Part shown: piece after piece, positions 2,419 to 28,182 of the stretch
Position numbering within the stretch: the stretch's first letter is position 1
Layout of the letters: every line of letters begins with the position of its first letter
Origin: a virus
Taxonomy: Duplodnaviria; Heunggongvirae; Uroviricota; Caudoviricetes
Virus record (IMG/VR): IMGVR_UViG_2778261451_000005
Reading direction: 5' to 3' (one strand)
Length of the DNA stretch: 35,227 bases
Translations under genes and position numbers: made by a program
Notes under the pieces: model-generated
Databases searched by the model: none
Told to the model about the DNA's origin: nothing
What the model saw: only the letters and a program-made list of their open reading frames with translations

Positions 2419-2589
2419 ATGAATGAGCCTCGTTGTATTGCTCAGTTATTGCGTAACGAAAGCCCCAGGGCGATTGACTTCACCATCACCCACGGGAAGG
2501 GACGCAAGGGAATCATTATCCGCACCAAAAAACAGAGTCCGTTAAAGAAGGCTCTGACCTTTCTGAAAAGCCGGAGGGGCTGGAAATGA
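2419..2589 (+). CDS. Small early protein (P2 orf78 position)
   Basis: ATG at 2419 preceded by TAAGGAG; 56 aa; conserved position between cox and B; ORF-track start 2395 is GTG. Confidence 0.6.
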   Translation: MNEPRCIAQLLRNESPRAIDFTITHGKGRKGIIIRTKKQSPLKKALTFLKSRRGWK

Positions 2590-3086
2590 CAGTGATGACG
2601 CTCAATCTCGTTGAAAAACAGCCAGCAACTATGCGCCGGATAATTGGTAAGCATCTTGCCGTTCCTCGCTGGCAGGAGACATGTGATTATTATAATCAGA
2701 TGATGGAGCGCGAACGGCTAACAGTTTGCTTTCATGCGCAGTTAAAACAACGTCACGCAACGATGCGTTTTGAAGAAATGAACGACGTCGAACGTGAACG
2801 GCTGGTTTGTGCAATTGATGAACTGCGTGGGGCATTCTCAAAACGCCGTCAGGTCGGTGCAAGTGAGTATGCATATATTAGTTTTTTAACAGTCAGTCAG
2901 CGTCGTACTTTATTTATGCATGCGGGATTGACAGAAAAAGAATTCAATCAGCCGTACTGGCGAATTAATGAAGAATCATGTTACTGGCGTGATGCTTTAT
3001 TCCGTGCATTACGTGAATTATTCAGTCTGTTTGAGTATGCACCGACAATTCTGACGTCGGTAAAACCAGAGCAATATCTGCATTAA
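2586..3086 (+). CDS. B: Replication protein B (helicase loading)
   Basis: 166 aa, same size and position as P2 B; ATG overlaps the upstream stop. Confidence 0.8.
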   Translation: MTVMTLNLVEKQPATMRRIIGKHLAVPRWQETCDYYNQMMERERLTVCFHAQLKQRHATMRFEEMNDVERERLVCAIDELRGAFSKRRQVGASEYAYISFLTVSQRRTLFMHAGLTEKEFNQPYWRINEESCYWRDALFRALRELFSLFEYAPTILTSVKPEQYLH

Positions 3087-7334: not shown

Positions 7335-8066
7335 ATGGATACTATAATCGCTTTTCTATCACTCGCTTTTTTTGTTGCTTTTTTCATCGGGTTAATCAAG
7401 CCATCACTGGTGCGAATGCCAAGCCGCAAACGTGCAAGTGCGGTTTATCTCGGAGGAGGTTTTGTATTGAGCATAATTGGTTCAATACTCTATCCAACAG
7501 AAAAAAGCCAGCCAGTTGCTAAAACTGAAACATCAACCGTTGTAGAACACCAAGTCCAAAAAACATTCGAATATGGTGAAAAAACACTCAAGGAATATCG
7601 GAGCGAGCCAAAGAAAACTCGACACGATATTGTGAATAGTTACATTGACTTTAAGAAAGTTCCAGTCACCGCATCAGATGCATTTTATGCCTGCATGAGT
7701 GAGTATACATTTACCAAAGATGATGAGTTGAAACTCGGTGATGTTCTTGGGTGGTGCTTTAATGATTATGAAAATGACCCGAGTTCACTAAATAATAAAA
7801 TCAATCTTGATACATTTCAGAGTAATTTTAGTGGTTGGGATGGTTCTTATCGTCCATTGGAAAAACTAATTAAAGATAATATGAACGATGATTCATCTTA
7901 TAAACATGTATCAACGGTATATCATTTAGTTTTGAATAAAGACCCGCACGCCATTGTGAAAACGACGTTTCGCGGCACTAATGCTTATGGTGGCATGGTC
8001 AAACAGACTGTAGCAGCGCGAGTTGACGTGCGAACGGGTGAGATCGATTCAATACTCGACAATTAA
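7335..8066 (+). CDS. Cargo gene 1: membrane-anchored protein of unknown function (two N-terminal TM helices plus ~190-aa domain)
   Basis: ATG at 7335 with AAGGAT SD (ORF-track start 7311 is GTG); hydrophobic segments TIIAFLSLAFFVAFFIGLI and AVYLGGGFVLSIIGSILY separated by a basic loop; AT-rich; occupies the P2 tin/old position. Confidence 0.7.
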   Translation: MDTIIAFLSLAFFVAFFIGLIKPSLVRMPSRKRASAVYLGGGFVLSIIGSILYPTEKSQPVAKTETSTVVEHQVQKTFEYGEKTLKEYRSEPKKTRHDIVNSYIDFKKVPVTASDAFYACMSEYTFTKDDELKLGDVLGWCFNDYENDPSSLNNKINLDTFQSNFSGWDGSYRPLEKLIKDNMNDDSSYKHVSTVYHLVLNKDPHAIVKTTFRGTNAYGGMVKQTVAARVDVRTGEIDSILDN

Positions 8067-8085
8067 ATAATATAGTGACAGCTCC

Positions 8086-8143
8086 GTCAGTGATGAAACT
8101 TGCTTTTAGTCTTGGCGGGGTTGAGCAATGAGTCTTGCAAGGT
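8086..8143. repeat. Copy 2 of the ~55-bp repeated element, directly upstream of cargo gene 2
   Basis: cagtgatgaaacttgcttttagtcttggcggggttgagcaatgagtcttgcaagg aligns with 7115..7170. Confidence 0.7.
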
Positions 8144-8149
8144 GTTAGC

Positions 8150-8806
8150 ATGCGTAGAATGGAAGCTGCTTGGACGTGGGGTATTCATATGAATTTAAAA
8201 ATTTTCGGCATAATTGTCCTTTCTGCTTTGATGTTCGTTTTAGGTTTTTTTCTCGGTGGTTTTAATTGGGAATGGGCTGATAAGAATTATGCAGGTGAGG
8301 TGGCGTTGTGGAGTATGTTAGGAGGGTGGTTATCCGCAATTGCAACTCTGTTTGCCGTGTTGGTTTCATTATATATGGCGTATCAAGCTACTCAGAATGA
8401 GATTGAAAAAATCAGGGTTACTCATGGAGTAAGTATGAGTGTCACTCATGACAATGAGTTAAGTTGTAATCTCATTATTCAGAACTTGAGAAATATGAAA
8501 GTGAATATTACTGGTGTTTTTTTGTCTCTAGGTAAATCATCAGGTAAGTACTCTTTGGATAAAGTAATTGACAATCGTAATATAACGCTTTCATATAAAG
8601 GTGAAACAGAAAAGGTACAATTTGTAATCCATTCTGGGTATATTTGGTGGTCAATGTATAAATTATTCGATATGGATAAGAACATAGGTTTTGAAAAGGG
8701 TAAGATCTTTATAACAACCAACCTCAATACATATGAATTTGATTTGCCAAAAGAATATTTAAGAGCTTTTGAGAAAGCTTATTCGGAGTATCAGACAAAA
8801 AAATAA
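8150..8806 (+). CDS. Cargo gene 2: membrane-anchored protein of unknown function (two N-terminal TM helices plus ~130-aa domain)
   Basis: ATG at 8150 preceded by AAGGTG (ORF-track start 8135 is TTG); hydrophobic segments IFGIIVLSALMFVLGFFLGGF and LWSMLGGWLSAIATLFAVLVSLYMAY; strongly AT-rich. Confidence 0.7.
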   Translation: MRRMEAAWTWGIHMNLKIFGIIVLSALMFVLGFFLGGFNWEWADKNYAGEVALWSMLGGWLSAIATLFAVLVSLYMAYQATQNEIEKIRVTHGVSMSVTHDNELSCNLIIQNLRNMKVNITGVFLSLGKSSGKYSLDKVIDNRNITLSYKGETEKVQFVIHSGYIWWSMYKLFDMDKNIGFEKGKIFITTNLNTYEFDLPKEYLRAFEKAYSEYQTKK

Positions 8807-8954: not shown

Positions 8955-9095
8955 TGCGCGCTGGCGGTGGTGCTGATTTTATTTTTTCAGCGTCTGAGCG
9001 CGTCGTGATGGCGTTTAGATTGTTCGCCGGGGCGTTGGTGTGTCTGCGGGATGTTTTGTGCGGTGGTGAGCGTGTGAGGGCGTGATGACAGGGTG

Positions 9096-9123: not shown

Positions 9124-10158
9124 TCAGCCGTTGTCAGTGTCCAGTGAGTAGTTTTTAAAGTGGATGACCTCCTGACCGAGCCAGCCGTTTATCTCGCGGA
9201 TCCTGTCCTGTAACGGGATAAGCTCATTGCGGACAAAGACCTTTGCCACTTTCTCAATATCACCCAGCGACCCGACGTTCTCCGGCTTGCCGCCCATCAA
9301 CTGAAAGGGGATGCGGTGCGCGTCCAGCAGGTCAGCGGCGCTGGCTTTTTTGATATTAAAAAAATCGTCCTTCGTTGCCACTTCACTGAGCGGGATAATT
9401 TTAATGCCGTCAGCTTTCCCCTGCGGGGCATAGAGAAACAGGTTTTTAAAGTTGTTGCGGCCTTTCGACTTCACCATGTTTTCGCGGAGCATTTCGATAT
9501 CGTTGCGATCCTGCACGGCATCAGTGACGTACATGATATATCCGGCATGAGCGCCGTTTTCGTAATACTTGCGGCGGAACAGCGTGGCTGATTCATTCAG
9601 CCAGGCAGAGTTAAGGGCGCTGAGATATTCCGGCAGACCGTACAGCTCCTGATTAATATCCGGCTCCAGCAGGTGAAACACGGAGCCGGGCGCGAAAGGT
9701 GTCGGCTCATGGAAGGACGGCACCCACCAGTAAACATCCTCTTCCACGCCACGGCGGGTATATTTTGCCGGTGAGGTTTCCAGTCTGATGACCTTACCGG
9801 TGGTGCTGTAACGCTTTTCCAGAAACGCATTACCGAACACCAGAAAATCCAGCACAAAGCGGCTGAAATCCTGCTGGGAAAGCCACGGATGCGGGATAAA
9901 TGTCGAGGACAGAATATTACGTTTGACGTAAATCGGGGAGCTGTGATGCACGGCAGCACGCAGGCTTTTTGCCAGACCGGTAAAGCTGACCGGTGGCTCA
10001 TACCATCTGCCGTTACTGATGCACTCGACGTAATCCAGAATGTCACGGCGGTCGAGTACCGGTACCGGCTCACCAAAGGTGAATGCCTCCATTTTCGGGG
10101 CGCTGGCGGTCATTGTTTTTGCCGCAGGTTGCGGTGTTTTCCCTTTTTTCTTGCTCAT
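9124..10158 (-). CDS. Q: Portal protein Q
   Basis: 344 aa; near-identical to recalled P2 Q (MSKKKGKTPQPAAKTMTASAPKMEAFTFGEP…). Confidence 0.95.
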   Translation of the reverse strand: MSKKKGKTPQPAAKTMTASAPKMEAFTFGEPVPVLDRRDILDYVECISNGRWYEPPVSFTGLAKSLRAAVHHSSPIYVKRNILSSTFIPHPWLSQQDFSRFVLDFLVFGNAFLEKRYSTTGKVIRLETSPAKYTRRGVEEDVYWWVPSFHEPTPFAPGSVFHLLEPDINQELYGLPEYLSALNSAWLNESATLFRRKYYENGAHAGYIMYVTDAVQDRNDIEMLRENMVKSKGRNNFKNLFLYAPQGKADGIKIIPLSEVATKDDFFNIKKASAADLLDAHRIPFQLMGGKPENVGSLGDIEKVAKVFVRNELIPLQDRIREINGWLGQEVIHFKNYSLDTDNG

Positions 10159-21670: not shown

Positions 21671-23776
21671 ATGAGCACAAAATTCAAAACCGTTATCACC
21701 ACTGCCGGTGCAGCAAAGCTGGCAGCGGCAACCGCACCGGGAGGGCGGAAGGTCAACATTACCACGATGGCCGTCGGGGATGGCGGTGGTAAATTGCCTG
21801 TCCCGGATGCCGGACAGACCGGGCTTATCCATGAAGTCTGGCGACATGCGCTGAACAAAATCACCCTGGACAAACGAAACAGTAATTATATTATCGCAGA
21901 GCTGGTTATTCCGCCGGAGGTGGGCGGTTTCTGGATGCGTGAGCTTGGCCTGTACGATGATGCGGGAACGCTAATTGCCGTGGCGAACATGGCTGAAAGT
22001 TATAAACCCGCTCTTGCCGAAGGCTCAGGGCGTTCGCAGACCTGCCGCATGGTCATCATCGTCAGCAGTGTGGCCTCAGTGGAGCTGACCATTGACACCA
22101 CAACGGTGATGGCAACGCAGGATTACGTTGATGACAAAATTGCAGAGCATGAACAGTCACGACGTCACCCGGACGCCTCGCTGACCGCAAAAGGTTTTAC
22201 TCAGTTAAGCAGTGCAACCAACAGCGCGTCTGAAACACTGGCTGCAACGCCGAAAGCGGTAAAGGCCGCGTATGACCTTGCTAACGGGAAATATACTGCG
22301 CAGGATGCCACCACAGCGCGAAAAGGTCTTGTCCAACTCAGTAGTGCCACCAACAGCACGTCTGAAACGCTCGCCGCAACACCAAAAGCGGTAAAGGCCG
22401 CGTATGACCTTGCTAACGGGAAATACACTGCACAGGACGCCACCACAGCGCGAAAAGGTCTTGTTCAGCTCAGTAGCGCCACCAACAGCGATTCTGAAAC
22501 GCTGGCCGCAACGCCAAAGGCGGTAAAGGTCGCGTATGACCTTGCTAACGGGAAATACACTGCACAGGACGCCACCACAGCGAGAAAAGGCCTTGTCCAG
22601 CTCAGTAGCGCCACCAACAGTGATTCTGAAACGCTTGCGGCAACGCCAAAGGCGGTAAAGGTCGCGTATGACCTTGCTAACGGGAAATACACTGCACAGG
22701 ATGCCACCACAGCGCGAAAAGGGCTTGTTCAGCTCAGTAGCGCCACCAACAGTGATTCTGAAACACTGGCCGCAACACCAAAAGCGGTGAAGTCTGCCTA
22801 TGACAATGCTGAAAAACGTCTTCAGAAAGATCAGAACGGTGCGGATATTCCTGATAAAAGATTATTCCTGCGCAATATTGGAGCAACAAATTCAACAACC
22901 ATGTCTTTTAGTGGTGGTACAGGATGGTTCAGGCTGGCAACTGTAACCATGCCCCAGGCCAGTTCCGTGGTTTACATAAGCCTGATTGGTGGTGCCGGAT
23001 ATAATGTTAACTCCCCTATGCAGGCTGGTATATCTGAACTTGTTCTTCGTGCGGGAAATGGAAATCCAAAAGGTCTTACTGGTGCGTTATGGCGACGGAC
23101 ATCGGTTGGATTTACTAATTTTGCATGGGTGAATACATCCGGTGATACCTATGATGTTTATGTTGAAATAGGTAATTACGCCACAGGTGTTAATATTCAG
23201 TGGGATTATACCAGTAACGCCAGCGTAACGATTCATACATCACCAACTTATACAGCGAATAAACCAACAGGCCTGACAGATGGAACTGTATATGTAATTT
23301 ACAGTTCGTACATTAAACCGACTGCTGCTGATGTTGGGGCGTTATCATTATCTGGTGGTCAATTGAATGGTGCTCTGGGTATAGGAACATCCAGTGCTCT
23401 TGGCGGTAATTCGATTGTTTTGGGTGATAATGACACGGGCTTTAAACAAAATGGTGATGGTAATCTGGATGTTTATGCTAATAGCGTCCATGTTATGCGC
23501 TTTGTCTCCGGAAGCGTTCAAAGTAATAAAACCATAAATATTACGGGGCGTGTTAATCCCTCGGATTACGGTAACTTTGATTCCCGCTATGTGAGAGATG
23601 TCAGACTTGGCACACGTGTTGTCCAGACCATGCAGAAAGGGGTGATGTATGAGAAAGCAGGGCACGTAATTACCGGGCTTGGTATTGTCGGTGAAGTCGA
23701 TGGTGATGACCCCGCAGTATTCAGACCAATACAAAAATACATCAATGGCACATGGTATAACGTCGCACAGGTGTAA
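21671..23776 (+). CDS. H: Tail fiber protein H with expanded internal repeats
   Basis: 701 aa; conserved N-terminus; about five tandem 44-aa repeats (…QLSSATNSxSETLAATPKAVKxAYDLANGKYTAQDATTARKG…); AT-richer C-terminal tip. Confidence 0.9.
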   Translation: MSTKFKTVITTAGAAKLAAATAPGGRKVNITTMAVGDGGGKLPVPDAGQTGLIHEVWRHALNKITLDKRNSNYIIAELVIPPEVGGFWMRELGLYDDAGTLIAVANMAESYKPALAEGSGRSQTCRMVIIVSSVASVELTIDTTTVMATQDYVDDKIAEHEQSRRHPDASLTAKGFTQLSSATNSASETLAATPKAVKAAYDLANGKYTAQDATTARKGLVQLSSATNSTSETLAATPKAVKAAYDLANGKYTAQDATTARKGLVQLSSATNSDSETLAATPKAVKVAYDLANGKYTAQDATTARKGLVQLSSATNSDSETLAATPKAVKVAYDLANGKYTAQDATTARKGLVQLSSATNSDSETLAATPKAVKSAYDNAEKRLQKDQNGADIPDKRLFLRNIGATNSTTMSFSGGTGWFRLATVTMPQASSVVYISLIGGAGYNVNSPMQAGISELVLRAGNGNPKGLTGALWRRTSVGFTNFAWVNTSGDTYDVYVEIGNYATGVNIQWDYTSNASVTIHTSPTYTANKPTGLTDGTVYVIYSSYIKPTAADVGALSLSGGQLNGALGIGTSSALGGNSIVLGDNDTGFKQNGDGNLDVYANSVHVMRFVSGSVQSNKTINITGRVNPSDYGNFDSRYVRDVRLGTRVVQTMQKGVMYEKAGHVITGLGIVGEVDGDDPAVFRPIQKYINGTWYNVAQV
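22189..22800 (+). repeat. About 4.6 tandem copies of a 132-bp coding repeat inside H
   Basis: Period 132 bp, nearly identical units; explains the spurious antisense ORFs 22201..22446 and 22465..22710. Confidence 0.85.
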
Positions 23777-23779
23777 TTT

Positions 23780-24307
23780 ATGCAGCATTTAAAAAATATT
23801 ACTGCGGGTAATCCAAAAACTGTTGCCCAATATCAACTGACAAAAAATTTTGATGTTATCTGGTTATGGTCCGAAGAGGGAAAAAACTGGTATGAGGAAG
23901 TAAGTAATTTTCAGGAAGACACGATAAAGATTGTTTACGATGAGAATAATATAATTGTCGGCATCACCAGAGATGCTTCAACGCTCAACCCTGAAGGTTT
24001 TAGCGTTGTCGAGGTTCCTGATATTACCGCCAACCGACGTGCTGATGACTCAGGTAAATGGATGTTTAAGGATGGTGCCGTGATTAAGCGGATTTATACG
24101 GCAGACGAACAGCTGCAACTGGCGGAATTACAGAAGTCAGCTTTGCTTTCCGAAGCTGAAACTATCATTCAGCCACTGGAACGCTCTGTCAGACTGAATA
24201 TGGCAACAGATGAGGAGCGTAGCCGACTGGAAGCATGGGAACGCTACAGTGTTCTGGTCAGCCGTGTGGATCCTGCAAATCCTGAATGGCCGGAAATGCC
24301 GCAATAA
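23780..24307 (+). CDS. G: Tail fiber assembly chaperone G
   Basis: 175 aa; follows H as in P2. Confidence 0.88.
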
Positions 24308-24341
24308 GTTGTATGATCTCTGGAGTGAGCTAACGTATCTA

Positions 24342-24383
24342 TAGCACAGAGTAAAGCCTAATCTGACAGTCTGCTCTGTGCTA
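24342..24383. repeat. Hairpin (10-bp stem tagcacagag / ctctgtgcta, 22-nt loop) carrying the left inverted-repeat site
   Basis: Read directly; no U-tract, so not a canonical terminator. Confidence 0.55.
24360..24375. repeat. Site L: 16-bp element aatctgacagtctgct, perfect inverted repeat of 26793..26808
   Basis: Exact reverse-complement match; candidate recombinase recognition site. Confidence 0.7.
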
Positions 24384-24485
24384 GGAGCGGACTGACCTGC
24401 TTCCCGATGATTAATACACAGCTATGCTAGTAATGTCCGTAGATCGCTGTGTGTTGCATCCATCGGTTGAACTCACAGTCCAAAC

Positions 24486-24506
24486 CAGACTGTCAGCTTT
24501 GATTAG
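24486..24506. repeat. Site M: cagactgtcagctttgattag, direct copy of site R (26795..26814) and inverted relative to site L
   Basis: 20 of 21 positions match site R, with one indel. Confidence 0.65.
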
Positions 24507-24659
24507 ATTCTACCTACTCAACCTGTCAGATAAGGTCTGAGCTAATACATCTAATATATGGCTTCGTGCAGGGGACGGCTATCGCGAACGTTAGGCCAGG
24601 TATCTGAATACGCACATTCACTTGGTTGTACTTCTTGCACTGATCTGCTATCCCGCACA

Positions 24660-24696
24660 GCTATTTATAGGTAATCTTCAGTGTATAATCTGCCAA
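24660..24696 (+). promoter_or_regulatory. Putative sigma70 promoter for the 280-aa cargo gene
   Basis: Perfect TATAAT at 24684..24689 with a weak -35; AGGAG SD at 24717..24721 before ATG 24728. Confidence 0.45.
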
Positions 24697-24727
24697 CTTA
24701 TGGAAGCTTGTACAACAGGAGAAATAT

Positions 24728-25570
24728 ATGAAAAAAGAATTGTTTGGACGTTGCCCGTTTGATCTTGACGAAGATGTAAAAAAAATAGCCGCGATAAATA
24801 AATATATCCATGCAAAATTTGAGGAGCATAAAAATAAAATAGACAACCTAAAGGGTGTGGAACAAAAATTGATGGTCTTACAGTACTTTAATGTACTGAA
24901 TGAACTTAGTAATCAGGCTATCTCTTCTTTGAATATAGGAGCCTTTTCAGCATCGGAAGTATTAGCTAGGGTTATAATAGAACAGGCTGCCAATCAATTT
25001 TATATAGCAATAGATGATGGCGAAAATGCACAAGCATTACTCAAGGCTAGTAAGAAATTAGTTCATAGTAATGGAAAACGGTGGCTGGAGTGTTTAAAAT
25101 CCAAAGGAATGACTAATCCAGCAGCAAATGAAAGGATTCGCATGGGAAAAGAACTAACTGATCTATTTAATAGATTGTGGCCAAATACACCTGAATATCC
25201 AGGAACCAGAAAACTTTTTGAATTAATTGGCTGGGAAACACACTATCATGCCCATTACGTTCCCCTTTGTGATTCAATACATACATTCTCTGATGATATG
25301 GTAAATATAGTATCTCTATATAATGCAATCCAAAGTGATGAAAATACTGCTATCGAATTCATTCTTGCAGTTAAACAAGAAAATAAACGGCTGGCAATTT
25401 ATAATTTTGTAATTGCTACGGCCCTTCGGTGTGAGGCCTTAGTAAATGTATTTAACTCTTTAGGTTATCAGGATATTATAACAGAAATGACACCAACAAT
25501 AGATACAGTCAACCAGACTATAATTCGATATGATGATTTTGATCATTCCAGAATTGATGATTGTCAATAA
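24728..25570 (+). CDS. Cargo gene: 280-aa soluble protein of unknown function (candidate defence/exclusion effector)
   Basis: ATG with AGGAG SD; AT-rich; no TM segments or motifs I recognise; in the P2 Z/fun position. Confidence 0.75.
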   Translation: MKKELFGRCPFDLDEDVKKIAAINKYIHAKFEEHKNKIDNLKGVEQKLMVLQYFNVLNELSNQAISSLNIGAFSASEVLARVIIEQAANQFYIAIDDGENAQALLKASKKLVHSNGKRWLECLKSKGMTNPAANERIRMGKELTDLFNRLWPNTPEYPGTRKLFELIGWETHYHAHYVPLCDSIHTFSDDMVNIVSLYNAIQSDENTAIEFILAVKQENKRLAIYNFVIATALRCEALVNVFNSLGYQDIITEMTPTIDTVNQTIIRYDDFDHSRIDDCQ

Positions 25571-25676
25571 TTAATTGACAGAATACGTACATGCGCAACA
25601 ACTAGTGATAGTTGACTTATTTTCGCTCTTGAGAGACAACCATACTCAAATCTCCCACATTGCAGGAGATTTGAAT

Positions 25677-26261
25677 ATGAAAACGTCACCGTGGAATAAA
25701 GACCGTACCATCGGTCAAAAAAGGCCACTTCAGATATCTCATATCTGGGGGATCCGGATTAGACTTGAGTTGGAAGGTAAAACACGCGATCTAGCTCTGT
25801 TCAACATGGCTTTGGACACTAAGCTACGGGGCTGTGATTTGGTCAAACTCAAAGTATCAGATGCTGCATATGGCAGTTCTGTCTCAAGCAGAGCAACGGT
25901 GTTGCAACAGAAAACCGGCAGCCCTGTCCAATTTGAGATAACCAAAGGGACAAGGGAAGCGGTTACTGCATTGATAAAGCTCGGCAACTGGCATAGTAAA
26001 GGCTTCCTGTTCCGCTCTCGGGTCGGAACTAACCACCATATATCAACCCGGCAATACAACCGAATTTTTCATGGGTGGGTAGAAAAGCTTGGTCTCGAAG
26101 ATTCGCTGTACAGCACACATTCCATGAGAAGAACAAAACCTTACTTAATCTACAAGAAAACCAAGAGTCTCCGGGTGATCCAACTTCTGTTGGGCCATAA
26201 GAAACTGGAAAGCACAGTCCGTTATTTGGGCATTGAAGTCGATATAGAAGGTCTCTTTTAA
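25677..26261 (+). CDS. Small tyrosine recombinase, catalytic domain only (FimB/FimE-like size)
   Basis: 194 aa from ATG at 25677 with AGGAG SD (ORF-track start 25575 rejected); catalytic signature R (…TKLRGCDL…), HxxR (…THSMRRT…), LLGHxxxxxTxxY (…LLGHKKLESTVRY…); lacks an N-terminal core-binding domain. Confidence 0.75.
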   Translation: MKTSPWNKDRTIGQKRPLQISHIWGIRIRLELEGKTRDLALFNMALDTKLRGCDLVKLKVSDAAYGSSVSSRATVLQQKTGSPVQFEITKGTREAVTALIKLGNWHSKGFLFRSRVGTNHHISTRQYNRIFHGWVEKLGLEDSLYSTHSMRRTKPYLIYKKTKSLRVIQLLLGHKKLESTVRYLGIEVDIEGLF

Positions 26262-26283
26262 GTTATGGGGGCTGATTTTATAT

Positions 26284-26661
26284 TCAATAGCGTATGCTCA
26301 TCGAAGAAATAAACTCATAAAATGTAAAGACAGCCAGCAAAAACATACAGATAAAGATAAGGGAAATAGCACACTTAACTAAGGGCTGAACCCCCCGAGG
26401 TGTTCCCCATGGTTTAGACATTTGGGTTATAACCCAAATAAATAAGGCCACAAAACAGCAAACACCAGCCAATCCGAGCAGAGATATTATGACAACTCCA
26501 AACAGATTTCCAACATCTAGTTTATCTGTTTTTGCAACTAGGGTTAACAAACCAGCAATAATAGTTGCAATCGATATTCCCGCAATGGTTGTGAGATCGG
26601 CGATAACAGCCAGTTTTTCTTTAGTATTTCCTTGAGTAAAAACCTCTAAAATTGATTTCAT
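26284..26661 (-). CDS. Cargo gene: 125-aa membrane protein (three predicted TM helices), convergent with the recombinase
   Basis: ATG at 26661 with AGGTGG SD; TATAAT-like -10 elements upstream on minus strand; hydrophobic segments throughout; AT-rich. Confidence 0.65.
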   Translation of the reverse strand: MKSILEVFTQGNTKEKLAVIADLTTIAGISIATIIAGLLTLVAKTDKLDVGNLFGVVIISLLGLAGVCCFVALFIWVITQMSKPWGTPRGVQPLVKCAISLIFICMFLLAVFTFYEFISSMSIRY

Positions 26662-26792
26662 GGAAATAACCACCTACTATCGATTATATTCAGGAGCTTT
26701 TTATTATAACGATATCAGATAGATAAGGACATTGTAATATTTTGGATGATTTAAACTTGCTTTTGTAACTCTAATGTCCACTTTTCGCTCAA

Positions 26793-26814
26793 AGCAGACT
26801 GTCAGATTTGATAG
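26793..26814. repeat. Site R: agcagactgtcagatttgatag (inverted partner of site L, direct partner of site M)
   Basis: Exact 16-bp reverse-complement match to 24360..24375; lies between the island and FI. Confidence 0.7.
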
Positions 26815-26867
26815 CATTTGGGCTATGTAAATTGTCAGGCGGAAAATGAGTGAGTACAAATCAGGAC

Positions 26868-26895
26868 AGGCGGGCGAATTGCCCGCCTTTTCTTT
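26868..26895 (+). terminator. Rho-independent terminator upstream of FI
   Basis: aggcgggc / gcccgcct stem, 5-nt loop, followed by TTTTCTTT. Confidence 0.7.
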
Positions 26896-26991
26896 ATCTG
26901 TTGTTTCATCCACTGACCAGTCAGGTCAAATAGCGTCTCATGCACTGCCCAACAGAAAATAGTTGCACCCATTAACCACGGAGTTAAACGG
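26896..26991 (+). promoter_or_regulatory. Region expected to contain late promoter P_F
   Basis: Position upstream of FI as in P2; specific Ogr dyad not confidently located. Confidence 0.4.
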
Positions 26992-28182
26992 ATGAGTGAC
27001 TATCATCATGGCGTGCAGGTGCTGGAGATTAACGACGGCACCCGCGTCATTTCCACCGTATCCACTGCCATTGTCGGCATGGTCTGCACGGCCAGCGATG
27101 CGGATGCGGAAACCTTCCCCCTCAATAAACCGGTGCTGATTACCAATGTGCAAAGCGCAATTGCAAAGGCCGGTAAAAAAGGCACGCTGGCGGCATCGTT
27201 GCAGGCCATCGCTGACCAGTCAAAACCGGTCACCGTTGTCGTGCGCGTGGAAGACGGCACCGGTGATGACGAGGAAACGAAACTCGCGCAGACCGTTTTC
27301 AATATCATCGGCACCACCGACGAAAACGGTCAGTACACCGGACTAAAAGCCCTGCTGGCGGCGGAGTCGGTAACCGGTGTTAAACCGCGTATTCTCGGTG
27401 TGCCGGGACTGGATACCAAAGAGGTGGCTGTTGCACTGGCATCCGTCTGTCAGAAGCTGCGCGCTTTCGGATATATCAGCGCATGGGGCTGTAAGACCAT
27501 TTCCGAGGTGAAAGCCTACCGCCAGAATTTCAGCCAGCGTGAGCTGATGGTCATCTGGCCGGATTTCCTCGCATGGGATACGGTCACCAGTACCACCGCC
27601 ACCGCGTATGCCACCGCCCGTGCGCTGGGTCTGCGCGCTAAAATCGACCAGGAGCAGGGCTGGCATAAAACGCTGTCCAACGTCGGGGTAAACGGTGTTA
27701 CCGGCATCAGCGCGTCCGTATTCTGGGATTTGCAGGAGTCCGGCACCGATGCTGACCTGCTTAACGAGTCAGGCGTCACAACGCTGATTCGCCGTGACGG
27801 TTTCCGCTTCTGGGGTAACCGTACCTGCTCTGATGACCCGCTGTTCCTCTTTGAAAACTACACCCGCACCGCGCAGGTGCTGGCCGACACGATGGCTGAG
27901 GCGCACATGTGGGCGGTGGACAAGCCCATCACCGCAACGCTGATTCGCGACATCGTTGACGGCATCAATGCCAAATTCCGAGAGCTGAAAACAAACGGCT
28001 ATATCGTGGATGCGACCTGCTGGTTCAGCGAAGAATCCAACGATGCGGAAACCCTCAAGGCCGGAAAACTGTATATCGACTACGACTATACCCCGGTGCC
28101 TCCTCTCGAAAACCTGACCCTGCGCCAGCGTATTACCGATAAATACCTGGCAAATCTGGTCACCTCGGTTAACAGCAATTAA
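26992..28182 (+). CDS. FI: Tail sheath protein FI
   Basis: 396 aa; P2 size and order. Confidence 0.93.
   Translation: MSDYHHGVQVLEINDGTRVISTVSTAIVGMVCTASDADAETFPLNKPVLITNVQSAIAKAGKKGTLAASLQAIADQSKPVTVVVRVEDGTGDDEETKLAQTVFNIIGTTDENGQYTGLKALLAAESVTGVKPRILGVPGLDTKEVAVALASVCQKLRAFGYISAWGCKTISEVKAYRQNFSQRELMVIWPDFLAWDTVTSTTATAYATARALGLRAKIDQEQGWHKTLSNVGVNGVTGISASVFWDLQESGTDADLLNESGVTTLIRRDGFRFWGNRTCSDDPLFLFENYTRTAQVLADTMAEAHMWAVDKPITATLIRDIVDGINAKFRELKTNGYIVDATCWFSEESNDAETLKAGKLYIDYDYTPVPPLENLTLRQRITDKYLANLVTSVNSN

Follow-up and report, generated by a model that had tools for sequence, protein, structure and literature searches.

Introduction

The tyrosine recombinases FimB/FimE, MrpI, HbiF and IpuA are about 200 amino acids (aa) long, do not carry a core-binding domain and are expected to use sites with arms of ~9 bp. 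An open reading frame (ORF) of the same architecture lies at positions 25677–26261 (+ strand) of the virus record IMGVR_UViG_2778261451_000005, a stretch of 35,227 nucleotides (here called the window; coordinates given without a locus label refer to it). The window represents a P2-like Escherichia coli prophage which carries the ORF in its Z/fun cargo slot. A first-pass annotation made from the sequence alone had taken the gene for a dedicated DNA invertase of the FimB/FimE type within a tail-gene cargo locus. We found that the protein truly belongs to a large family of minimal tyrosine recombinases (~200–210 aa), so far uncharacterised, and that in enterobacteria the genes of this family are bounded by two types of short sites which also delimit arrays of cargo cassettes. 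The family probably moves such cassettes rather than flipping DNA. In contrast to the FimB/FimE group, in which it has no family-level membership, the gene has no associated invertible promoter element and no inversion was observed; it is flanked by two sites of its own and tied to cassette arrays.

Among P2-like phages, the Z/fun location is known as a hot spot for defence (PMC9122126, PMC13586616), and ‘left/right inverted repeat’ annotations are given for it in GenBank AJ512683 and AJ512685. The work of Nilsson, Karlsson and Haggard-Ljungquist (2004, Mol Biol Evol 21:1) is summarised as showing repeats that enable the site-specific exchange of fun, and site-specific recombination was proposed in 2004 as the entry route of foreign genes into the slot (PMC8987985). 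In the summaries of the 2004 work, no enzyme for this entry is named (PMC8987985). The P2 repeats, the idea of site-specific cargo entry and the generic RefSeq annotation of the gene were therefore already known. The repeats of the window are these P2 repeats; new here are the match of their cores to the ends of the recombinase unit and the presence of the same sites in arrays beyond P2. Neither the recombinase family and its unit nor the two types of site, the mini-units and the arrays were found described in the literature, although an earlier hint in Nilsson et al. (2004) is possible. Full-text searches with six site sequences gave no match, and full-text topical searches (DUF5677; recombinase/cassette/defence) returned no description of the family or its sites.

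In integrons, as at the loci described here, a tyrosine recombinase gene stands next to an array of compact cassettes, mostly of one to three genes, and the cassettes are parted by imperfect palindromic composite sites of ~60–70 bp (here the 66-bp mini-unit described below). The cassette circles predicted for our system would likewise carry one composite site. The cargo of sedentary integrons includes anti-phage defence genes (bioRxiv 10.1101/2024.07.02.601686), as does the cargo found in this study. In contrast to the integron integrase IntI, the window protein has no IntI core-binding domain and scores 18 bits with integron integrase models whose cut-offs are 265–435. The sites lack the GTTRRRY core, their pattern GTCCGC-N12-GCGGAC is not that of attC, and each half of the composite site is a palindrome of the double-strand 9-6-9 type. 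Moreover, the cassettes occur in either orientation, a common promoter was not identified among those delimited, and the recombinase gene stands inside the array between two sites, in arrays lying within prophages, islands and plasmids.

The pdif modules of Acinetobacter plasmids (see the review PMC9771954) are moved by host XerC/XerD. They resemble our loci in being discrete cargo modules with short, alternately oriented sites shared between neighbours, and in that identical modules occur on different replicons with breakpoints at the sites. The sites described here differ from them in not being dif-like and in having two centre classes, and a dedicated minimal recombinase encoded within the array would take the place of host XerCD. 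Rci, which acts on the sfx sites of the R64 shufflon, is also a tyrosine recombinase with short sites that have one well-conserved arm. It differs in its length of ~384 aa, in its N-terminal domain and in the role of shufflons, which invert pilV gene segments. The sfx spacer, GTGCCAA, resembles the GTGCCA centre of one of our two site types, a resemblance that could be due to chance.

Results

The ORF begins with ATG 25677, ends with the stop codon 26259–26261 and encodes 194 aa with a catalytic domain only. Residues 35–184 matched Pfam PF00589 (Phage_integrase; E = 9e-18, 65 bits, cut-off 27.1), the protein also matched PHROG 216 ‘integrase’ (E = 6e-29), and the identical 194-aa ORF is recorded in RefSeq as WP_001514314.1, ‘tyrosine-type recombinase/integrase’. 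In a profile alignment with XerD (1a0p residues 131–279), R51 (KLRGCDL; codon 25827–25829), K79 (QQKTG; 25911–25913), H148-x-x-R151 (HSMRR; 26118–26120 and 26127–26129), H174 (LLGH; 26196–26198) and Y183 (VRYLG; 26223–26225) fell on the catalytic positions. The R / HxxR / GH…Y signature read from the sequence in the first-pass annotation was thus confirmed, and all six residues are invariant across the family alignment. Only ~35 residues precede the catalytic domain. Extension of the frame upstream to TTG 25575 added no domain recognisable by domain search, and remnants of an integrase N-terminal domain, for which this region had been proposed to be checked, were not found there; the DNA of the extension represents the 5′ leader that is conserved in the family unit. 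The AlphaFold2 model built from an alignment of 11 sequences could not be used (mean pLDDT 39).

Over 7,900 homologues of ~200 aa, a number to be read as a lower bound, were retrieved when 5.8 billion proteins were searched. The best 120 of them are 72–96% identical to the window protein and nearly all 200–203 aa long; the sources among the homologues include Proteus, Providencia, Pantoea, Pectobacterium, Idiomarina and Cycloclasticus. In an exhaustive search of representatives at 50% identity, 354 clusters were found at E <= 1e-30. Among the 150 best representatives, the full-length members have ~198–211 aa, the match starts at residues 10–16 in most, and a core-binding domain was detected in none (0/150). 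Since the family is ~200 aa long without a core-binding domain, the catalytic-domain-only architecture is native, and an N-terminally truncated integrase was ruled out, as the first-pass annotation had supposed. The family was delimited at a full-length identity of 59% or more to its ~200-aa members; the window protein is 74–93% identical to the family proteins P0001–P0120 and 59–95% identical to the proteins of 80 genome loci.

No named NCBIfam family was found for the window protein. With the invertase models NF007371 and NF007370, the scores (22.9 and 14.5 bits) were far below the cut-offs of 222 and 221, and the Xer models scored slightly higher (XerC 43.3 bits, cut-off 335; the other 25.7 bits, cut-off 330). 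The FimB/FimE-type label therefore held for the architecture and failed for the sequence. Owing to its sub-threshold scores and the absence of the N-terminal domain expected in a two-domain protein of ~300 aa, the protein does not belong to XerC/XerD either, and the integron integrase scores given above place it outside IntI. The profile comparison with these three groups, which had been proposed as a check, thus assigned the protein to none of them.

Plasmids, prophages and genomic islands of the Alpha-, Beta- and Gammaproteobacteria carry members of the family, whose units were found on 320 plasmids from these three classes. Within E. coli, 970 of the 5426 complete genomes (18%), including Nissle 1917 and ATCC 25922, hold a copy 88–91% identical to the window gene; the carriers are CP4-type islands (e.g. 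in Nissle 1917), Qin-, Rac- and e14-like prophages and IncF plasmids. An intact member in Nissle 1917 is WP_001305361.1. The gene lineage has been under purifying selection (pairwise dN/dS 0.06–0.11). Among the loci examined, no neighbour gene was constant and dozens of unrelated genes stood beside the recombinase. Two of these neighbourhoods may be mentioned. In marine Gammaproteobacteria such as Cycloclasticus (L014–L021), an identical recombinase (P0069) stands between arsenic-resistance and copper-resistance modules of an ICE (integrative and conjugative element)-like element with RadC, primase and CobT/VWA genes, so that the cargo adjacent to the unit extends beyond phage defence. In a Proteus locus (L008), two recombinase genes (2544–3023 and 8001–8603), one of them a partial copy of 159 aa, bracket ~5 kb of cargo with TIR-domain proteins in a composite-like arrangement.

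In all of the 19 enterobacterial units examined, the gene is bounded by two 24-bp quasi-palindromic sites. The intact unit of ~710 bp consists, in this order, of a left-type site, a hairpin over the ribosome-binding site (RBS) and ATG, the gene, a GC hairpin and a right-type site. The sites share the consensus GTCCGC-N12-GCGGAC and are both 9-6-9 quasi-palindromes, GTCCGCnnn-(TCGCTC or GTGCCA)-nnnGCGGAC, with the centre TCGCTC in left-type and GTGCCA in right-type sites. Simple core sites of tyrosine recombinases classically have this 9-6-9 layout. The left-type site, GTCCGCnnn-TCGCTC-(A/T)nAAGGGAC, stands ~54 nt before the ATG and the right-type site, AGCAGCCCT-GTGCCA-nnAGCGGAC, ~26 nt past the stop codon. 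The unit-side arm and the 6-bp centre are near-invariant in these units. The outer arm keeps the GTCCGC/GCGGAC pattern and its three centre-adjacent bases differ from copy to copy, as would be expected if strand exchange at the centre left the outer arm to the neighbouring DNA. Read in the same orientation (TCGCTC and TGGCAC), the two centres have two fixed differences in six positions.

The borders of homology agree with these sites. An identical Proteus protein (P0022) is encoded in at least three unrelated contexts, the common DNA being a ~705-bp block, 98.5% identical, that comprises the gene, ~60 bp upstream and ~42 bp downstream. In three E. coli loci (L105–L107), homology between the contexts begins at 8993 and ends at 9700–9704, i.e. 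at the sites. Neither a target-site duplication nor a common target sequence was visible at the unit borders. The Pseudomonas units have lineage-specific 25-nt near-perfect inverted repeats (TGTCCGCTTCTGGCCGGTTAGCGAC) instead, and the sites therefore co-vary with the protein lineage. In five of the Pseudomonas loci (L079, L084, L085, L089 and L100), the repeats lie ~60–75 nt upstream and 40–55 nt downstream of the gene; they include the centre (TGGCCG), whereas the enterobacterial centres differ at two positions. Because both flanking repeats match including the centre, inversion of the unit may be possible in Pseudomonas. Across 72 diverse loci, CCGCT occurred upstream in 27 and AGCGG downstream in 29, at clustered distances from the gene, compared with 6 and 3 in displaced control windows. 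This 5-mer position test and the table of enterobacterial sites were more informative than a search for inverted repeats between the flanks of 76 usable loci, which was ungapped and insensitive.

Both site types are much more frequent than expected. In 458 kb of recombinase-containing enterobacterial loci, 123 left- and right-type sites were found compared with ~2 expected, and an unbiased scan for GTCCGC-N12-GCGGAC with at most one mismatch in total found 54 sites compared with ~1 expected, all but one having either of the two centres. The sites also occur without the recombinase, singly or as left–right pairs, dividing arrays of compact cargo cassettes. Here they are nearly all co-oriented and alternate in the order right-type site, cargo, left-type site, 18 bp, right-type site, cargo. 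The left-type site, the 18-bp spacer and the right-type site form a 66-bp mini-unit, a discrete, unannotated intergenic element (e.g. L106 7009–7075, L105 11715–11780 and L107 7447–7512), which is present in 637 of the 5426 E. coli genomes in one to three copies each. The recombinase unit has the structure of a mini-unit in which the gene replaces the 18-bp spacer. The two 24-bp halves of the mini-unit are complementary at 18 of 24 positions, and a single strand could fold as an attC-like hairpin.

Altogether 31 cassettes of 0.5–8.7 kb were delimited by these sites. They hold mostly one to three genes in either orientation, often fitted tightly between the sites. Ten cassette proteins were scanned; a complete SIR2-HerA system, a defence dGTPase, DUF4238, helicase, NUDIX, GNAT and Sel1 proteins were identified among them, and several of the ten are anti-phage defence genes. 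The DUF4238 domain was shown to be protective against T7 (PMC9122126). In the island of strain Nissle 1917 (L105), the population breakpoints of the segment cluster at the right-type site 7489–7512 and at the left-type site 8993. The right-type site has a P2-L-like flank (7455–7512; TAATCTGACAGTCCGCTCTGTGCCAGGAGCGGAC); in CP4-type islands, its neighbour is the ‘GTPase family protein’ gene. The conserved backbone stops at this site and was found in 4294 of the 5426 complete E. coli genomes, at a median of two places per genome, and backbone homology often ends where the site ends. This suggests that a second, very common hot spot uses the right-type site of CP4-type islands.

The recombinase ORF of the window stands, as had been noted, in a tail-gene cargo locus: it lies in the Z/fun slot between the tail-fibre assembly gene G (23780–24307, Caudo_TAP) and the sheath gene FI (26992–28182). 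The slot is bordered by site L, a full right-type site (GTCTGCTCT-GTGCTA-GGAGCGGAC, 24369–24392, + strand), and site R, a full left-type site (GTCCACTTT-TCGCTC-AAAGCAGAC, 26776–26799, + strand), with cargo from 24393 up to 26775. In P2 terms, L is the core of the ‘left inverted repeat’ and R that of the ‘right inverted repeat’. The long repeat arms (24360–24392 and 26776–26808) have 33 nt, are 82% complementary and correspond to the annotations in the two GenBank records cited above. The sequence CTCTGTGC(C/T)ANNAGCGGAC in L and GTCCRCTTTTCGCTCA in R agree with the ends of the unit. The centre of L is GTGCTA and not GTGCCA; the idea that this is an inactivating mutation was dropped, as the identical variant recurs at L030 13080.

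The breakpoints were compared in six P2-like prophages with five cargo types (EC58, EC67, P2 and AC1 with shared cargo, Wphi, and E. coli TUM18781). Homology to the window breaks at 24380–24394 on the left and at 26773–26785 on the right, except in TUM18781, in which the right break is at 26243. All phages compared have the same phage-side arm and centre, and their cargo-side arm changes with the cargo. The L and R repeats are also present in P2-like phages without the recombinase gene. The region 24300–27000 is 99.6–99.8% identical to that in prophages of S88, PCN033, MS7163 and others, and the whole cargo region is present in 36 of the 5426 complete E. coli genomes. In the best 20 of these 36 genomes, it has a single orientation, 19 holding it in one piece and one being split solely by an IS3 insertion; as evidence on inversion, this comparison is limited to closely related genomes and to assemblies.

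The AGGAG sequence noted as the gene’s own RBS is present at 25664–25668, 8 nt from the ATG. However, it is normally masked: a hairpin at 25641–25679 (+ strand) with 15-nt arms, complementary at 14 of 15 positions, and a 9-nt loop buries both AGGAG and ATG, and the 51-nt segment with this hairpin has a folding energy of about −16 kcal/mol. The hairpin is a family-wide feature. Its arms vary by lineage yet stay complementary (ATCTCC/GGAGAT, GTCCTCC/GGAGGAC, GTTCTCC/GGAGAAC and GGCTCCT/AGGAGCC), and at least six uninterrupted Watson–Crick pairs between the leader and the RBS–ATG segment were found in 55% of 80 loci compared with 8.5% of shuffles. RNAalifold did not recover the hairpin from a MAFFT alignment of 30 leaders, which was out of register across lineages; the assignment is based on per-sequence folding and the stem-length test against shuffles. 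A control in which the upstream 28 nt were shuffled did not discriminate, the RBS being paired in 69 of 80 loci and still in 71% after shuffling. RBS-masking fold-backs are known from the IS10 and IS50 transposase genes, in which they block activation by outside transcription.

Beyond the first-pass annotation, we found that the window copy is damaged at its 3′ end and that its own flanking sites are lost or degenerate. Homology to every intact unit ends at 26243, i.e. at codon 189. The final 18 nt (26244–26261, + strand), coding for IEGLF and the stop codon, are not recombinase sequence but the distal half of the terminator hairpin of a membrane-protein cassette, and the gene is therefore 3′-truncated. 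From 26243 on, the window is 99.65% identical to the membrane-protein cassette of TUM18781, and the junction falls in the loop of the cassette’s terminator hairpin, AAAAGAGACCTT-ATA-GAAGGTCTCTTTT. IEGLF, found in this lineage only, stands in for the last 11 conserved codons (DALEISESIEV), and the conserved C-terminal tail (DDALEISESIEV) is nearly invariant in the close relatives aligned. This tail, the GC hairpin and the right-type site are all deleted from the window unit. Of the left-hand features, the hairpin 25641–25679 is intact, and a degenerate left-type site (GACTTATTT-TCGCTC-TTGAGAGAC, 25614–25637, + strand) keeps its centre and inner arm and has lost its outer arm (GACTTATTT). Judged by these features, the window holds a damaged member of the family, a relic. 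In the prophage of S88 (L001 2879–3463), the copy has, in addition, the substitution V167G at a residue invariant in the family alignment, which fits relaxed constraint after truncation.

The original array would have consisted of G, a right-type site, the DUF5677 cassette, a left-type site, the recombinase and a right-type site, the membrane-protein cassette, a left-type site and FI. A single illegitimate deletion would have produced the present arrangement by removing the recombinase gene from codon 189 on, its hairpin, the right-type site and ~325 bp at the start of the following cassette. The damage is probably recent, because it follows long purifying selection, the dN/dS of the window branch in a three-taxon estimate being ~0.07, close to that of intact copies. 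In Cre and XerD, the subunits contact one another through the C-terminal segment beyond the catalytic tyrosine. As this segment makes such contacts and is conserved in the relatives aligned, we lean towards impaired activity of the window protein, which may nevertheless have residual activity in trans.

The cargo itself comprises a DUF5677 gene (24728–25570, + strand; 280 aa, PHROG 4167), in a cassette bounded by 24393 and 25613, and the membrane-protein gene (26284–26673, − strand; 129 aa predicted, PHROG 4155), which is the sole Z-slot cargo in TUM18781. PADLOC models matched none of the three cargo proteins. A degenerate left-type site (GTCCGTAGA-TCGCTG-…, 24434–24457, + strand), read directly from the sequence 41 bp past site L, looks like the relic of an emptied cassette position. 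Site M (24472–24529, + strand) repeats the phage-side half of R and its flank in direct orientation with 71% identity and has no cargo-side arm. As one arm is absent, M was rejected as a third functional site; from its structure it is best read as a recombination scar rather than a full site, and together with the degenerate site 24434–24457 as the scar of earlier events.

Several other features of the window were recorded. A terminator-like element, a strong GC-rich hairpin with a T run behind it (AGGCGGGCGAATTGCCCGCCTTTTC, 26863–26893), lies in the conserved phage flank between R and the start of FI. A perfect 20-nt palindrome (ATTTGGGTTATAACCCAAAT, 26420–26439) is situated inside the membrane-protein gene (− strand), and the tail-fibre gene H (21671–23776, + strand) contains four to five tandem units of ~40 aa, YTAQDATTARKGLVQLSSATNS(D/T)SETLAATPKAVK(A/V)AYDLANGK. 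A promoter scan gave a count no higher than in shuffles and no promoter ahead of the recombinase, and Rfam had zero matches within 24200–27100.

Discussion

The co-location of the gene and the two site types, the arrays and the breakpoints make it fairly probable that the family is an enzyme of cassette insertion, excision or exchange, integron-like or pdif-like in its outcome. The recombinase would bind the GTCCGC arms as a tetramer across two sites, with strand exchange at the 6-bp centre. Since the two centres differ in enterobacteria, each of the two site types would recombine with its own kind. Two direct left-type sites in an array would release a cassette circle carrying one mini-unit, and the circle could insert at any matching site of a phage, island or plasmid. 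One crossover at each site type between two molecules would result in cassette exchange of a phage with the chromosome or a plasmid. Of the two outcomes that the first-pass annotation had considered for the locus, switchable expression or cassette exchange, the latter is thus the one we favour, and no sign of inversion was seen.

Several observations weigh against this interpretation. The putative link between the protein and the sites depends on co-location and co-variation. The site-bearing backbones are present in ~79% of the E. coli genomes and the recombinase in 18%, and as the sites are far commoner than the gene, host Xer, a phage integrase or another enzyme could act on them. In the recombinase units, the inner arms match GTCCGC poorly, so that these may not be full sites, and the flanking repeats of distant lineages are weak, only 16 of 76 loci exceeding the 95th percentile of shuffles. 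Some breakpoints lie off-site: L004 and L008 diverge at ~9500, the site being at 9154. The phage collection contained no isolated P2-like phage with the recombinase gene. As for the damage to the window copy, the gene could still be active, given its uninterrupted ORF, the full set of catalytic residues and a low dN/dS, and the effect of the lost tail is argued from the C-terminal contacts known in Cre and XerD.

An alternative, to which we assign the next place, is that the ~710-bp unit is itself an autonomous mini-element of the insertion sequence (IS) type, the mini-units resembling MITEs (miniature inverted-repeat transposable elements) and the arrays and P2 repeats being scars of insertion. 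Near-identical units in unrelated contexts with borders at repeats, the mini-units at many E. coli locations, a symmetric core site that would be formed by joined ends and the likeness of the RBS-sequestering fold-back to those of IS10 and IS50 all speak for it. We nevertheless regard it as unlikely, since cargo is closely and regularly framed by solo full sites and mini-units, all in one orientation and across many kilobases, a pattern that fits cassettes as the units of exchange. Moreover, the P2 slot has a right-type site on the left and a left-type site on the right, the opposite of an inserted unit, and the borders show neither a target-site duplication nor a common target. The IS-like explanation overlaps with that of cassette movement, and the unit itself may be mobile too.

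The original proposal, a FimB/FimE-type invertase that flips the cargo between L and R or the short segment between L and M and so switches cargo expression, has in its favour the shared ~200-aa catalytic-domain-only architecture, the inverted L and R repeats around the cargo and the inverted L and M repeats 84 nt apart. In Pseudomonas, where the flanking sites are near-perfect inverted repeats including the centre, inversion is conceivable. For the window, however, a dedicated invertase is improbable. The invertase models scored far below their cut-offs and lower than the Xer models, no inverted allele was seen in the best 20 of the 36 cargo-bearing genomes, which were co-linear, and L and R occur in P2-like phages with other cargo and no recombinase. 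The two fixed differences between the enterobacterial centres should block exchange between L and R, M has no cargo-side arm, and the freely varying neighbours of the recombinase mean that it has no dedicated target gene. Still less probable, in our opinion, is a three-gene anti-phage defence system of the DUF5677 protein, the recombinase-like protein and the membrane protein, with the recombinase fold serving as DNA sensor or effector. It would suit a slot that is a defence hot spot (PMC9122126, PMC13586616) and three adjacent genes without known function. However, none of the three proteins matched PADLOC models, the membrane-protein gene stands alone in the same slot of TUM18781, and the join between the recombinase and the membrane-protein cassette is that of an illegitimate deletion. 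A fixed three-gene operon was rejected because the recombinase has no conserved partners and stands beside dozens of unrelated genes.

Cassette movement by the recombinase family thus remains our preferred explanation. A wider form of it is plausible but tentative, namely that the family and its two site types constitute an unrecognised cassette platform, a minimal recombinase with double-strand 9-6-9 sites, which reshuffles accessory and defence hot spots. Its reach would include the P2-like Z/fun slot, CP4-type islands, lambdoid, Rac and e14 prophages, and plasmids across Proteobacteria. The window would then be a fossil array inside a phage, and the platform would provide the missing mobilisation function for the swapping of defence systems. 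The message of the window copy itself is modest: it is a damaged passenger gene and not a switch, most likely crippled in function and a trace of the cargo’s arrival.

The very small size of the recombinase and its two possibly heterospecific sites could make it useful as a tool. If it is true that the family is the enzyme, a 200-aa protein and a 24-bp site would give a concrete mechanism of cassette movement, and the sequence pattern GTCCGC-N12-GCGGAC, with TCGCTC or GTGCCA as its centre, would serve as a simple rule to delimit cassettes and find new cargo. It would also account for the movement of defence and accessory cassettes among the phages, plasmids and islands of many Proteobacteria, E. 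coli included.

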